Shown: in pieces, positions 2-63,461 of the stretch
How the letters are laid out: each line of letters opens with the position of its first letter
How positions within the stretch are numbered: position 1 is the first letter of the stretch
Origin: Deltaproteobacteria bacterium
GTDB taxonomy: Bacteria > Myxococcota_A > UBA9160 > SMWR01
NCBI GenBank assembly: GCA_019313245.1
Contig: JAFDBP010000056.1
Location: 1 to 63,461, forward strand
Length of the DNA: 63,461 bases
Direction: 5' to 3'
Notes under the pieces: model-generated
The model's database searches: none
Told to the model about the DNA's origin: nothing
Seen by the model: only the letters and a program-made list of their open reading frames with translations
Made by a program: the position numbers and the translations under genes

Positions 2-1897
2 ATGTCGAACTACACCCCGCTGACCCTCGCCTCTCACATGTTCGATCGAACGCTGTTTGGCGACAATGCGGGCGGATATCACTTGACGAACGCAGTGCTA
101 CACGCCCTCAATTCCGTTCTGCTGTTCTTCACGCTGCTTTCGATGACCGGCGCGCGCTGGCGCAGCGCAACCGTGGCGCTGCTGTTCGCCGTCCACCCGC
201 TGAATGTCGAATCGGTCGCCTGGATCTCCGAGCGCAAAAACGTGCTGAGTACGCTGTTCTGGATTCTCACGCTGTGGGCGTATGCGAGATACGCGAGACG
301 GCCGGGTGTGGCGCGCTACCTGGGCGTCGCGCTGCTGCTCGCATTGGGGCTCCTCGCAAAACCGATGCTCGTAACGCTCCCCCTCGCGCTGCTGCTTCTC
401 GATTACTGGCCGCTCGGTCGCGTCCGCTGGCGAGGATCGACCGCTGAGCGCCAGGCATCCCCCTTTGCAGCGCGATCGATCGGCTTCCTGATCGCCGAGA
501 AGCTGCCGCTGCTGGCGATCTCTGCGGCGGCGAGCGTCGCGACCTACCGCGCCCAGAGCCGCGGATTCGTCGCAACGGAGTCGCTCACCCTGCTCGAACG
601 CCTCGCGAACGCCGCAGTCGCCTACGCGCGCTATCTGGGCAAGCTCGTCTGGCCTTCCGATCTGGCGATGCACTACCCGCACCCCTACCTGCCCGAAATG
701 GGCGGCATTCCGCTCGAAGCCTGGCAGATCGCGGGGTCGCTGTTGCTGCTGCTCGCGTTGACGGTCGCCTCGATCGCAGCGCTGCGCCGGCGCTATCTGG
801 CGGTGGGCTGGCTGTGGTTCCTCGGAACCCTGGTGCCGACGATCGGCGTGGTGCAGGTGGGTCACCAGGCACTCGCCGACCGCTACGCCTACGTGCCCGC
901 GATCGGTCTGTTTCTGGCGCTGTCCTGGGCGGGCGCGGAGGGGATCGCGCGCTTGCGGGCCTGGCGCCCCGCATTGGCGCACTCGCTGCTGGCGGTTGCG
1001 GCTGCGGGCATCGCGGCACTCGCGCTGACTTCGTGGCATCAGGTCGGCTACTGGCGGGATTCGATTTCGCTCTTCGAACGCACCCTCGCGCTGATCCCGA
1101 AGAACCCGAAGGTCAGCTTCAACCTCGCCAACGAATACCGCGCGCGCGGCAACGTGAAAGAGGCGATCCGGCACTACCGAATCGCGCTCGAAACCGACCC
1201 CAATGCACTCCGCACGCTGGTGAATCTGGGGGGCGCGCTGAATTCTGCGGGAGAACACGACGCCGCAATCGAAACCTGCAAAGCGGTCTTGAACCTCCAC
1301 CCCCTGCACGCACACGCCTACAACAACCTCGGAGTCGCTCTGCAGATGAAAGGAGAGTCCGCCTCGGCGCTGGCCAGCTTTCGTCGCGCCATCGAGTTGG
1401 ATTCCCGGCAGGCCGACGCGCATAGCAACCTCGCCAAAGCGCTCAGCTTGCAGGGGAAGCACGAAGAGGCGATCGCGCACTATCGCGAGGCGCTCGAGAG
1501 CCCCGCGCTGGCGGATCCGGCGGGCACTTCACTCGCGCTCGGGAATGCGCTCTTCAATCTCGGCCGGATCGAGGCCGCCGAATCGGCCTACCACGACGCG
1601 ATCGAACGCGACCCCGGCAACCAGCACGCGCAGAGCAACCTCGCTGTGACGCTCGCCCAACGCGGGAAGCTCGACGAGGCGATCGCCCACTTCCGCCTGG
1701 CGATTGCGATTTCTCCAGACTTCGCGGCCGCCCACAACGGTCTTGGAGAATGCCTGCGCGCACAGGGAAAGGTCGAGGCGGCCATCGAGGCCTACGAGAA
1801 TGCGTTGCGCGCAGATCCGGACTTCGCGCCGGCGGCCAGCAATCTCGAGAAGGCGAGAAAGATGCAAAACCCGCCTGGCGCTGCGCGCTCACGCTAG
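2..1897 (+). CDS. TPR-repeat polytopic membrane protein, TMTC/DUF1736-like GT-C-fold (protein O-mannosyltransferase-like); probably 5'-truncated by the window edge
   Basis: Long ORF open from the window start. The N-terminal half is multi-pass membrane with HPLNVESVAWISERKNVLSTLFW-type block. The C-terminal half has multiple TPR units (AIRHYRIALETDPN, AYNNLGVALQMKG, AIAHFRLAIAISPDF, AIEAYENALRADPDF). Confidence 0.8.
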   Translation: MSNYTPLTLASHMFDRTLFGDNAGGYHLTNAVLHALNSVLLFFTLLSMTGARWRSATVALLFAVHPLNVESVAWISERKNVLSTLFWILTLWAYARYARRPGVARYLGVALLLALGLLAKPMLVTLPLALLLLDYWPLGRVRWRGSTAERQASPFAARSIGFLIAEKLPLLAISAAASVATYRAQSRGFVATESLTLLERLANAAVAYARYLGKLVWPSDLAMHYPHPYLPEMGGIPLEAWQIAGSLLLLLALTVASIAALRRRYLAVGWLWFLGTLVPTIGVVQVGHQALADRYAYVPAIGLFLALSWAGAEGIARLRAWRPALAHSLLAVAAAGIAALALTSWHQVGYWRDSISLFERTLALIPKNPKVSFNLANEYRARGNVKEAIRHYRIALETDPNALRTLVNLGGALNSAGEHDAAIETCKAVLNLHPLHAHAYNNLGVALQMKGESASALASFRRAIELDSRQADAHSNLAKALSLQGKHEEAIAHYREALESPALADPAGTSLALGNALFNLGRIEAAESAYHDAIERDPGNQHAQSNLAVTLAQRGKLDEAIAHFRLAIAISPDFAAAHNGLGECLRAQGKVEAAIEAYENALRADPDFAPAASNLEKARKMQNPPGAARSR

Positions 1898-17147: not shown

Positions 17148-17531
17148 TCATTGCTTGCGGCCGTCCGGCAGTTTGTGAATCTTCTCCAGCAATTCGACGG
17201 CGCCGATCGGCTTGAAGATGTAATCGTTGCAGCCGCTCGCGAAGCCTTCGTCGACATGCGCCGGCTCGCTACGCGTCGTCACCATGATGATCGGAATCGA
17301 CTCGGTGGCCTCGTGACCTCGGATCAGGCGGCACGCCTCGAAGCCGTTCATTCGCGGCATCACGACGTCCATCAGGATGAGGTCGGGCTGTTCGGCCACG
17401 GCCTTTTCGACACCCTTGATGCCATCCTCGGCCGTGATGACCTCGCAACCTCTCAGCGACCGCAGGATCAGCTCCTGGGTCATCGCGGCCACTTTCGAAT
17501 CGTCGACGATGAGGATCTTCTTCGGTTGCAT
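17148..17531 (-). CDS. single-domain response regulator (CheY-like receiver)
   Basis: KILIVDDS, phospho-acceptor context DLILMDVVMPRMNG, IIMVTT, and DYIFKP with the conserved Lys. Lies 60 nt upstream of the GAF gene on the same strand. Confidence 0.92.
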   Translation of the reverse strand: MQPKKILIVDDSKVAAMTQELILRSLRGCEVITAEDGIKGVEKAVAEQPDLILMDVVMPRMNGFEACRLIRGHEATESIPIIMVTTRSEPAHVDEGFASGCNDYIFKPIGAVELLEKIHKLPDGRKQ

Positions 17532-52229: not shown

Positions 52230-53420
52230 ATGAGCGAGTTCTCTGTGCCGAGCGCCGTCGCGCAGATCGGCCAGAAGCTGGTCGCAGCGGGACACGCGTC
52301 TTTCCTGGTGGGTCCGGGATTGCGCGACCTGCTTTGCGGAATTGCGCCGTCACACTTGGAATTGTCGACGGATGCACCGCTCCGCGCGATCTTGGATCGA
52401 TTTTCGAGCGGGGTCTTGATCGAAAATCGAAGCCATGCCGTAATGGTCCCGAGTCCGGCGGGCCCGGTAGAAGTGAGTCCGTTCCGCGCAGGTGCACAGG
52501 TCGAGGACGACCTCGCCCACCGCGACTTCACAGTCAACGCCATCGCCTTCGACATCGCCAGCCGGAAATGGCTCGACCCACACGGCGGTCGAGCGGATCT
52601 GGGAAGCGGTCTGATCCGCGCGGTGCGAAGCGCAAGAGATTGCGTCGACGAGGATCCGATCCGCGCGCTACGGGGGGTTCGACTCGCCGCAACGCGGGGC
52701 TGGGAGATAGATAGCGATTTCGAGAGCGCGCTCTCTCGCGCCCGGACGGCACTCGCCGAGATCCCGCGCGAACCCGTTCGCCGCGAGCTGGTGGCGATTT
52801 TGCTCTCGAGGGGCGCTGCCCGAGGCCTGGAGCAGCTCGAGCGAAGCGGCATCGCCTCGACACTCGCGCCGGGCACGACGGCGGACTCGAGCGCTCTGGT
52901 GGATCGATTGGATTGCGACCTCGAGTTGAGACTGGCCGGTTGGCTCCGCGGCACCCGCATCAGAACGGTGTTGCAGCGTCTGCGGTTCTCGCGCCCTACG
53001 ATCGACCGCGTCGACCTCTTGCTGCGATTCCACTACAGCGACCGCGAGATCAACGCGATGACTCCGGCCGCCATCGCGCGATTCGCGCGCCGAGTCGGCA
53101 CCCGCAACCTGGCGGCACTGATTGCGCTGCGCGAAGCCGAGGCCAAAACGACCGGCGATGAACCCGAGGCGGCTCGAAGCGCACTGCATCGGCTGCAAGG
53201 ATCGCTGACATCACTGCGCGAATCCGAACGAACCGCGAGCGCGCGCAGCCAGTTGCGTTTCTCGGGTGACGACGTGATCGCGTACCTCGGCTGCGAACCC
53301 GGGCCCCGCGTGGGGCGCGCGATCGCCTACCTCAGCGAGTGCATCCGCCGGAACCCGGACCTCAACTCGCCCGATGCGCTGCGGGAATTGCTGCGCGATT
53401 GGGCCGACGAAACCGCCTGA
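52230..53420 (+). CDS. CCA-adding enzyme / poly(A) polymerase family nucleotidyltransferase with variant catalytic motif
   Basis: Head-domain blocks VGPGLRDLLCG (for GGxVRDxLLG) and HRDFTVNAIAF (RRDFTINA). The DxD position aligns to H-L-E (SHLELST). The neck/body region DPIRALRGVRLAA is conserved. Confidence 0.8.
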   Translation: MSEFSVPSAVAQIGQKLVAAGHASFLVGPGLRDLLCGIAPSHLELSTDAPLRAILDRFSSGVLIENRSHAVMVPSPAGPVEVSPFRAGAQVEDDLAHRDFTVNAIAFDIASRKWLDPHGGRADLGSGLIRAVRSARDCVDEDPIRALRGVRLAATRGWEIDSDFESALSRARTALAEIPREPVRRELVAILLSRGAARGLEQLERSGIASTLAPGTTADSSALVDRLDCDLELRLAGWLRGTRIRTVLQRLRFSRPTIDRVDLLLRFHYSDREINAMTPAAIARFARRVGTRNLAALIALREAEAKTTGDEPEAARSALHRLQGSLTSLRESERTASARSQLRFSGDDVIAYLGCEPGPRVGRAIAYLSECIRRNPDLNSPDALRELLRDWADETA

Positions 53421-53468
53421 CCCGCGAAGCGGGGAAACTCGGACCGCGCGCGGAGCCGCCAGCTCCGC

Positions 53469-53693
53469 TCAGAGATCCCGGAGCTTCGAGAGGATCTCGT
53501 CCGGCTCGGGGAAGCGATCCACCTCGTGCTTGGAGAAGATCATGTCGCCGTCGACGACGACGTCGAATATCCCCCCACCGCCGCTGACCAACTCGGGCTC
53601 GACGCCGGTTTCATCCTTGATGGTGGCTGCCAAACTGGCAGCCTGGGGCAGGTAATTTCACTGTGCGCAATAGGTGATCGAAATCTTCATCAT
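53469..53693 (-). CDS. selW: SelW/Rdx-family selenoprotein (CxxU), in-frame TGA read as selenocysteine
   Basis: Not in the ORF track. ATGATG at 53693 with GGAGG 6 nt upstream. Translation: MMKISITYCAQ-TGA(53660..53658)-NYLPQAASLAATIKDETGVEPELVSGGGGIFDVVVDGDMIFSKHEVDRFPEPDEILSKLRDL-stop(53471..53469). The CxxU redox motif and the G-G-x-F-x-V...SK...RFP pattern are those of the Rdx/SelW fold. Confidence 0.8.
53625..53643 (-). promoter_or_regulatory. SECIS-like stem-loop GGCUGCC-AGUUU-GGCAGCC downstream of the in-frame UGA
   Basis: The hairpin begins 14 nt 3' of the UGA on the coding (minus) strand. It has a 7-8-bp GC-rich stem and a small apical loop containing GU, matching the position and form of bacterial SECIS elements. 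Confidence 0.6.
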
Positions 53694-53729
53694 CAGGTCC
53701 TCCCGTGGCAATCCGGATTGACGCAGCTC

Positions 53730-54479
53730 CTAGTCGCGGCTGGACATGAACAGCCGCAGCACGTACCAGAACATCAGTGCCACCGACGCGAAGAGCTGCA
53801 ACGCCGCGCCGACGTATCGGTCTTCCGGGAAGTGGTGCAACACATTGGAGGTGTCGTAGAGGATCGCAGCGCCCGCGAATCCGATCATCGCGACCGAGAA
53901 CCAGGTGCCGAGTTCGAAACCGAAGAGGATGCCGCCGACGATCGCGAGCAGCGCCACGACTCCGCCCCACATCAGCATCCCGCGCAGAAACGAGAAATCC
54001 TTCCGGGTTACGAAAGCCACCGCGGTCAGTCCCGCAAAACCGACCAGCGTCACGATGGCAGCGCTCTGGATCGCGCCGGGAGCGTACATCTCGGCCAACC
54101 AGAGCATGGGAACGAAAATGATCGACTCCGCGACCACGAAGCCGCCTAGCGCCGCGTATTGAGCCCCCTTGGATTCCGAAGTGAGCGAGATCCGGGACGC
54201 GAACCAGCTGACCAGCATGAAGGCGCCGAGAACGAGCAGCCACGAGCCACTGAGGAGCACCCGCGCGATCGACTCCGCGTAACCGGACTGGAACAGGGCC
54301 ACCTCGATCAGGGTAAACAGCACGATCGCACCCATCAGGTGGTTGTAGGTGCGGTTGATGAAGGTGGCGCGCTCGTTGACGCCGATGGCGGCAACGGGTT
54401 GGTACCCCTGGGAAATCTGAAAATCAGTGCTCAAAGATGCTTCCTCCAATTGGAATTGCCCTTTGCGCGAGTTAGACAC
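53730..54479 (-). CDS. Bax inhibitor-1/YccA family membrane protein
   Basis: Seven TM segments. N-terminal FINRTYNHLMGAIVLF and C-terminal ILYDTSNVL...ALQLFASVALMFWYVLRLF blocks are typical of BI-1/UPF0005. GTG start. Lies immediately upstream of the selW-like gene on the same strand. Confidence 0.88.
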   Translation of the reverse strand: MSNSRKGQFQLEEASLSTDFQISQGYQPVAAIGVNERATFINRTYNHLMGAIVLFTLIEVALFQSGYAESIARVLLSGSWLLVLGAFMLVSWFASRISLTSESKGAQYAALGGFVVAESIIFVPMLWLAEMYAPGAIQSAAIVTLVGFAGLTAVAFVTRKDFSFLRGMLMWGGVVALLAIVGGILFGFELGTWFSVAMIGFAGAAILYDTSNVLHHFPEDRYVGAALQLFASVALMFWYVLRLFMSSRD

Positions 54480-62176: not shown

Positions 62177-63461
62177 TCAACCGCCGCCTCCGCGAGCGGC
62201 CTCGAGCCGCGCCGCCTTCGCCTCATCGTACCACCAGGTGTCGATCGCGAGACCCTCGCTGGGCACGATTTCGGGCCGGCCGAAGCGATCCCAGTAGAGC
62301 AGCCGGTCGGCGGAGATGTAGAAGTGGGGGATCATGTAGAAGCCCCAGAGCAACACGCGATCCAACGCGCGCACGCGGTTGATCAGTTCCTCGCGGTTCT
62401 TTGCCGCGATCACGAGTTCGATGAGTTCGTCGATTGCGGGGTCCGCGATCCCCATCGCGTTGCGGCTCCCCTCGCGCTTTGCCGCTGCGCTCGACCAGAA
62501 TTCGCGCTGTTCGTTGCCGGGGGAGTTCGTCTGCCCGATTCGCACCGTCGTCACGTCGAAGTCGTAGGTGTCCATGCGCTGCCGATACTGCGCGGTATCG
62601 ACCGTTCGCACCGAGGCTTCGATGCCGAGCCGCTCCAGGTTCTTCTTGAACGGAAGCGCAATCCGCTCCATGCTCGGAGACGCCAACAGGATCTCGAAGG
62701 CCATCGGCTCGCCGGTCTCGACATGCGTGAGGCGTCCGTCGACGATCTTCCAACCCGCCTCCGTGAGCAATTCCATCGCGCGACGCAGATTGCCGCGAAT
62801 CTTGCCGGAGCCGTCCGTCTGCGGCGGCTGATACCCGCTGGTGAAGACTTCGTCGGGAATCCGCCCCCTGAACGGCTCGAGAATTTCGAGTTCGGCCGGG
62901 CTCGGCAGGCCGCGCGCGGCGAGTTCGGAGTTCTCGAAGTAGCTGCGAACGCGCTCGTACTGGCCGAACGAGAGATTCTGGTTCATCCACTCGAAATCGA
63001 ACGCGTAACCCAGCGCCTCGCGAACGCGCCGATCTCGAAACAGCGGGCGCCGCAGATTGAACCCGTAGCCCTGCATGCCCTGGCTCCGCTGGTGGGGGAT
63101 CAGCTCCTTGCGCAGGCGGCCGTCGCGGACCTCGGGGATGTCGTACGCGGTGGCCCACTTCGACGCGCTGTTTTCGAGGCGGATGTCGTAGGCGTCGGCC
63201 TTGAGCCCCTCGATGGCGACGCTCATGTCGCGGTAGTACTCCCAGCGAAACGAATCGAAGTTGTTGCGCCCGCGGTTGACGGGAAGATCCGCGCCCCAGT
63301 AGTCGGCCCTGCGCCGGTAACTCACGTGGCGACCCGGCTCGAATTCCGCGATCTCGTAGGGACCGCTTCCCAGCGGCGGCTCGAGCGTCGTTTCCTCGAA
63401 GCTTCGATTCTCCCAGTAGTGTTTTGGGAGTATCATGAGTTCGCTGAGGATCAACGGAAGC
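62177..63461 (-). CDS. yejA: extracellular solute-binding protein family 5 (YejA-like), 5'-truncated by the window edge
   Basis: The frame stays open to the window end. Blocks PPLGSGPYEIAEFEPG, ADYWGADLPVNRGRNNFD and KWATAYD match the peptide/microcin-type SBP. The N-terminal ~150-200 aa lie outside the window. Confidence 0.85.
   Translation of the reverse strand, partial: LPLILSELMILPKHYWENRSFEETTLEPPLGSGPYEIAEFEPGRHVSYRRRADYWGADLPVNRGRNNFDSFRWEYYRDMSVAIEGLKADAYDIRLENSASKWATAYDIPEVRDGRLRKELIPHQRSQGMQGYGFNLRRPLFRDRRVREALGYAFDFEWMNQNLSFGQYERVRSYFENSELAARGLPSPAELEILEPFRGRIPDEVFTSGYQPPQTDGSGKIRGNLRRAMELLTEAGWKIVDGRLTHVETGEPMAFEILLASPSMERIALPFKKNLERLGIEASVRTVDTAQYRQRMDTYDFDVTTVRIGQTNSPGNEQREFWSSAAAKREGSRNAMGIADPAIDELIELVIAAKNREELINRVRALDRVLLWGFYMIPHFYISADRLLYWDRFGRPEIVPSEGLAIDTWWYDEAKAARLEAARGGGG

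Follow-up and report, generated by a model that had tools for sequence, protein, structure and literature searches.

Does the TGA codon that comes early in a small reading frame on the minus strand of this contig end translation, or is it read as selenocysteine (Sec)? The window, which is the whole stretch of DNA that we analyzed (63,461 bp, the entire contig), had been proposed to hide a SelW/Rdx-like selenoprotein gene at this locus. A profile match that runs across the TGA, the presence of TGA at the aligned codon of all related loci, and covariation in the hairpin that follows it support this proposal. Our preferred reading, to which we assign a probability of about 0.9, is a gene for an Rdx-family thioredoxin-fold oxidoreductase whose UGA is decoded as Sec. 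The features on which the analysis is based are collected in Table 1.

Table 1. Features of the SelW-like/Rdx locus and its neighbors (positions in the window)
Feature	Position	Strand	Remarks
SelW-like/Rdx selenoprotein coding sequence (predicted), complete	53469..53693	minus	74 codons from the first ATG
Tandem ATGATG	53693..53688	minus	Direct reading of the sequence
Shine-Dalgarno-like GGAGG	53699..53703	minus	Spacing of 5 nt to the first ATG and 8 nt to the second
TGC, Cys of the CxxU redox motif	53667..53669	minus	Invariant Cys in 72/72 distinct relatives
In-frame TGA, predicted Sec codon	53658..53660	minus	Aligned codon is TGA in 82/82 related loci
SECIS-like hairpin	53625..53643	minus	7-bp stem GGCUGCC/GGCAGCC, loop AGUUU (53636..53632)
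54-aa C-terminal ORF	53469..53633	minus	Present in the mechanical ORF list
True stop TGA	53469..53471	minus	Ends the Rdx gene
BI-1/YccA-type membrane protein gene	53730..54479	minus	Pfam Bax1-I, E=8.9e-28; upstream of Rdx
CCA-adding enzyme/poly(A) polymerase family gene	52230..53420	plus	Pfam PolyA_pol, PolyA_pol_RNAbd; downstream, convergent

Reading frame and start codon

The basic elements of the original prediction can all be read in the sequence: the tandem ATG behind a GGAGG opens a frame that meets the TGA, stays open for 62 further codons, and closes at a second TGA, and the read-through translation is identical to the one proposed. The first ATG (53693), which had been taken as the start, does exist, but the second one (53690) is the likelier start codon, because the conserved start of 72 of 72 distinct relatives aligns with it. 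Counted from this position, the product is probably a protein of 73 amino acids with Sec at residue 11, and its read-through translation is MKISITYCAQ-U-NYLPQAASLAATIKDETGVEPELVSGGGGIFDVVVDGDMIFSKHEVDRFPEPDEILSKLRDL. The C-A-Q-U motif (53669..53658) comes directly after the first beta-strand.

Membership in the Rdx family

Profile searches were run on the read-through protein with U written as C. The Pfam profile of the Rdx family (PF10262) matches it across the TGA with an E value of 1.3e-17 and a score of 64.2 bits (cutoff, 22.6), spanning residues 3 to 73 and profile positions 1 to 74 of 74. This end-to-end match bears out the earlier assignment of the CxxU motif to the SelW/SelT/Rdx family. 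The curated cutoffs were passed for two NCBIfam profiles as well, namely, TIGR02174 (CXXU_selWTH; 53.1 bits versus 34.2) and NF041051 ("SelT/SelW/SelH family (seleno)protein"), the latter with a margin of 0.1 bit (88.1 versus 88).

Seven solved chains of Rdx-family proteins in the PDB align over residues 3 to 74, with their CxxC placed on the CxxU, so that Cys stands at the TGA-aligned position. The best match is 2fa8 (Atu0228; E=6.4e-10), whose CTQC aligns with CAQU and puts its second Cys on the TGA. Homology to these seven chains indirectly suggests a thioredoxin-like fold for the product. This is a real gene for a small redox protein of the Rdx (SelW/SelT/SelH) family.

Conservation of the TGA codon and of both flanking frames

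DNA was read at 82 related loci, drawn from metagenome contigs in addition to 80 loci of genomes chosen one per species, and labelled as Myxococcota, Planctomycetota, Acidobacteriota (Vicinamibacterales), Verrucomicrobiota, Nitrospinota, Spirochaetes, and Proteobacteria, i.e., at least seven phyla. The closest genome is a metagenome-assembled genome (MAG) named "Deltaproteobacteria bacterium" (locus L010), and the remaining close genomes carry the labels Myxococcota or Myxococcales. Whether orthologs would keep the frame, and whether they would carry TGA or a Cys codon, had been among the checks proposed. The aligned codon is TGA in 82 of 82 loci, and TGC, TGT, TAA, and TAG occur in none of them.

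The frame is maintained on both sides of this codon. Upstream, the ten codons before the TGA are open and begin with a start codon in all 72 distinct sequences; among them, Ile, Tyr, and Cys never change, while third positions are more variable, and we conclude from this pattern that the segment is translated and under protein-level selection. Downstream, the 62 codons after the TGA are conserved in the related loci too.

Two relatives lack the Sec codon because of in-frame deletions. One is a locus in JGI metagenome 3300033147 (L007:298-510, protein P0001) with an in-frame deletion; its product equals that of L010 minus exactly 9 nt (ACAATGAAA), by which Gln-Sec-Asn is lost and YCGYLP results. 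The other, protein P0068, lacks a segment of about 20 codons in which the TGA and the hairpin lie. Both deletions could be real Sec-loss alleles or assembly artifacts.

The SECIS-like hairpin

A GC-rich hairpin had been placed 14 nt after the UGA, where we also found it, and it turned out to be conserved with covariation. It lies within the coding sequence, where it codes for (Q)AASLAA, and the G-U of its loop (53635..53634) occupies positions 26 and 27 when the U of the UGA is taken as position 1. The 51-nt stretch that starts at the UGA has a folding energy of -17.2 kcal/mol (z = -2.5), and only 1 of 200 dinucleotide shuffles was as stable.

Conservation of the structure was analyzed in a gap-free alignment of the UGA region of 80 sequences (A2). 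Of the cells of the 7-bp stem, 85.9% are paired, compared with 79.3% in shuffles and no more than 52.5% after sliding of the partner column. For covariation, the score is 0.182 versus 0.062 in shuffles, a value as high being found in 0 of 500 (n = 80, without correction for phylogeny), and RNAalifold independently recovers the upper stem. The clearest position is the pair formed by columns 27 and 39 (53640 and 53628 in the window), the third positions of two Ala codons and hence synonymous sites, which is paired in 80 of 80 sequences by six types of pair (C-G, 58; G-C, 9; U-A, 6; G-U, 4; A-U, 2; U-G, 1). If both columns were independent, the expected pairing would be 0.638 per sequence, and none of 100,000 permutations reached 80 of 80 (again uncorrected for phylogeny). 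The rarer pair types are spread over several unrelated lineages. The codons of the loop are fixed as well, with AGU for every Ser (66/66), GGU for the alternative Gly (13/13), and YUG for Leu (79/80). The hairpin is thus a conserved RNA element under RNA-level selection.

Columns 28 and 38 (53639 and 53629 in the window) show a U-C or A-C mismatch in 52 of the 80 sequences, because the codon there is Ser or Thr and not Ala; in the window they form a G-C pair. G-C is also the usual pair at these columns where the bottom pairs are lost to an Asp or Glu in place of the last Ala, and in one locus (L037) a U-A pair is restored via an Ala-to-Glu change.

Like the SECIS of Escherichia coli fdhF, which serves as the reference for Sec insertion elements of bacteria, the hairpin is part of the coding sequence, follows closely on the UGA, and carries its apical G-U within GUYUG. 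The loops differ slightly, being A-GGUC-U in fdhF, A-GUU-U in the window, and A-GUC-U in the family consensus, so that the loop of the window is one base shorter than that of fdhF. Its G-U is also 3 nt, or one codon, further from the UGA (+26/27 versus +23/24, the fdhF position having been read from the E. coli genome). The stem of the window is perfect, without bulge or mismatch, whereas 52 of 80 family members have an unpaired base in the 5' strand below the top three or four pairs. By its position only, we take this base to recall the bulged U17 of fdhF.

Rfam gave nothing at gathering score over the window and nothing at an E value of ≤10 in 53560..53700. This null result reflects that Rfam holds no model for such a short in-frame bacterial element and is no argument against a SECIS.

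Genetic code and Sec machinery

TGA is the stop codon of 18 of the 34 long high-GC3 ORFs in the window (64% GC) and therefore its commonest ordinary stop, from which it follows that the standard code is used and that TGA has not been reassigned. The absence of selA, selB, selD, and tRNA-Sec from the window, noted in the original prediction, holds: tblastn with the E. coli SelA, SelB, and SelD proteins found none of these genes in the 63,461 bp, and ARAGORN detected no tRNA of any kind there.

The same tblastn search covered about 1.2 Mb of flanking sequence of the related loci, in which a single physical link to the Sec machinery appeared. In a Desulforhabdus MAG (L086), a selD gene (151-1062, minus strand) stands divergent to the Rdx ortholog (1336-1548) at a distance of about 270 nt, and this selD is a selenoprotein gene in its turn, with an in-frame TGA where the E. 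coli protein has Cys17 (…LARTCG-U-AAKIGP). A "SelB" match in L058 was rejected, as it is LepA/EF4. No tRNA-Sec was found by ARAGORN in 60 related loci, whose only tRNA was a tRNA-Ser(GGA) in L031 and L032.

We also scanned the window for other ORFs with an in-frame TGA and obtained 20 candidates, none convincing. The two long ones are explained by ordinary adjacent genes in the same frame: the candidate at 62179 (minus strand) consists of a peptide-binding protein gene and then a permease gene, and that at 17150 (minus strand) runs from the end of a response regulator into the gene that comes next.

Truncated gene calls

The gene had been described as missed by the ORF track. The full-length gene is indeed absent from the mechanical ORF list, but its 54-aa C-terminal piece is listed, so the Rdx gene is truncated by ORF lists and gene callers rather than wholly missed. 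The TTG "start" of this piece (53633) is a Leu codon within the hairpin loop and has no ribosome-binding site of its own, and the fragment does not include the redox motif.

The same happens in the databases. A protein search returned 97 homologs, most of them 54-aa calls of the same C-terminal fragment, the nearest being 83 to 91% identical. JGI lists several of these as "selenoprotein W-related" or "selT/selW/selH-like putative selenoprotein". Two ENA calls from low-GC relatives (P0064 and P0044; L008:526-768 and L009:285-566) print W where the DNA has TGA, and the call in L008 reads through another TGA, near its end, as well. The W presumably comes from an alternative genetic code used by the caller, giving proteins that are "full-length" but wrong. 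This cutting short of the Rdx gene by gene callers is the only surprise of the locus, and it opens no new biological question.

Alternative readings of the UGA codon

Among the alternatives, the one that survives best is an intact gene in an organism that has recently lost its Sec machinery, in which the UGA would terminate translation and the gene would be a fresh relic. The window has no Sec machinery, the deletions in close metagenomic relatives (L007/P0001 and P0068) remove the Sec codon and may point to a relaxed need for Sec in this lineage, and loss of SelW-like genes in sister organisms has been documented (PMC1794560). Nevertheless, the TGA, its CxxU context, the perfect 7-bp stem, and the loop are all intact, and the four sel genes are not to be expected in 63 kb taken from a genome of several Mb in any case, so we regard a recent loss as very improbable.

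Even less probable is that the UGA is read as another amino acid, either Cys (by a SelB-dependent Cys-tRNA or by near-cognate decoding) or Trp or Gly (by reassignment). The window is silent on which tRNA reads the codon, and the ENA calls with W could be cited in favor of Trp, but these W residues sit on TGA and an alternative translation table is presumed. The use of TGA as the stop of more than half of the long ORFs in the window speaks against reassignment, a conserved hairpin of the SECIS type is a requirement of SelB-dependent decoding, and the ortholog in L086 has a Sec-containing selD at its side. To the same very low degree we would consider an organism without canonical selA, selB, selC, and selD that decodes the UGA and its hairpin otherwise, for instance, by SelB-like delivery of Cys by an unusual tRNA. 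A related possibility is that the sequences from which the Sec codon has been excised (L007 and P0068) are functional Sec-free variants.

Least credible of all is that the TGA is a true stop, with the locus being a pseudogene or making only the 54-aa ORF, the form in which gene callers report it in the window and for most homologs in databases, since in all 82 loci this TGA is never exchanged for another stop or a sense codon, the ten codons before it keep their frame and do not vary in the start, Ile, Tyr, or Cys, the Rdx profile covers both of its sides, and the 54-aa call begins at a loop Leu codon without a ribosome-binding site and lacks the redox motif.

Proposed decoding and function

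If the UGA is decoded as Sec, as we favor, translation would start at 53690 (or 53693) behind the GGAGG, and the ribosome would reach the UGA after 10 codons. The hairpin inside the coding sequence, 14 nt downstream, would then offer an apical G-U. If E. coli fdhF is taken as the model, the loop would be bound by SelB-GTP-Sec-tRNA(Sec), with Sec being inserted instead of termination, and translation would go on to 53469. In the product, Cys-x-x-Sec would be expected, as in other members of the family, to cycle between a selenenylsulfide and the reduced selenol/thiol, reducing a thiol-based substrate.

Gene neighborhood

As had been reported, the Rdx gene sits directly downstream of a BI-1/YccA gene on the same strand. 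The gap between the end of BI-1 and the start of Rdx is 36 nt and contains no terminator-like site, which makes cotranscription of both genes plausible. This adjacency was seen only in the closest relatives (L010, where BI-1 is 93% identical, L014, and L007) and is therefore no evidence of a functional link. On the other side, six loci keep the convergent CCA-enzyme gene at no more than 250 nt from Rdx.

A GC-rich hairpin immediately after the stop codon (53450-53468, minus strand; GCGGAGC-UGGCG-GCUCCGC), located between the convergent genes, was considered as a terminator and not called; it lacks a U-run, and its stability does not exceed that of shuffled sequence (z = +0.27).

Two neighborhoods deserve mention on their own. 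In a Myxococcales MAG (L001:9231-9713), whose gene order is otherwise like that of the window, and also in L002 and L004 to L006, a divergent AhpC-TSA/Redoxin gene takes the place of BI-1; a thiol peroxidase as the neighbor would fit a redox role. In L014 (CAZBSV010000124.1, labelled "uncultured Spirochaetales"), the order BI-1, Rdx, CCA enzyme, DLH, and GGDEF-EAL is shared with the window, and the proteins are 60 to 87% identical to those of the window, like those of Myxococcota MAGs. The label or the bin of L014 may be wrong.

Comparison with known Rdx proteins

Full-length homology and a thioredoxin-like Rdx domain connect the predicted product to the Cys-containing Rdx proteins of known structure (2fa8 [Atu0228], 3dex [SAV_2001], 2oka, 2obk, 2ojl, and 2p0g). 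These differ in being longer (about 100 to 108 aa, with extra termini), in having Cys instead of Sec, and in lacking a SECIS. Mammalian selenoprotein W and MIEN1/C17orf37 (2ljk) are also Rdx proteins with CxxU or CxxC, with low sequence identity to the product described here. The eukaryotic SECIS is an element of the 3' untranslated region and of a different kind. To our knowledge, functional partners (glutathione and 14-3-3) are known for animal Rdx proteins only.

The closest resemblance is to the bacterial SelW-like proteins, which share a length of about 70 aa, an N-terminal beta-strand followed by CxxU, and a short hairpin after the UGA with a G in its apical loop. There is no essential difference from them apart from a new sequence in an uncultured Myxococcota-like lineage. 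In marine metagenomes, SelW-like proteins with CxxU outnumber every other prokaryotic selenoprotein family, and their Cys forms are few (PMC1088965, PMC2398784): 48 Sec versus 7 Cys forms were counted in the Sargasso Sea (PMC1088965) and 427 versus 56 in the GOS data (PMC2398784). They have also been described in Geobacter, Desulfotalea, Symbiobacterium, and others (PMC1088965, PMC2398784, PMC1794560). Sec is probably the original form of this family (PMC1794560), and the exclusive use of TGA in our 82 loci agrees with that view.

The gene is thus one more member of the commonest bacterial selenoprotein family, known since 2005, and is real but ordinary. For annotation, it should be recorded as a selenoprotein of 73 to 74 aa and not as a 54-aa fragment. 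The 80-locus set provides a clean case of a bacterial SECIS upheld by synonymous codon choice within AASLAA, and the alignment could seed a search model for the abundant and routinely truncated SelW-like family. As to the organism from which the contig derives, the presence of an Rdx selenoprotein gene marks it as a likely user of Sec.
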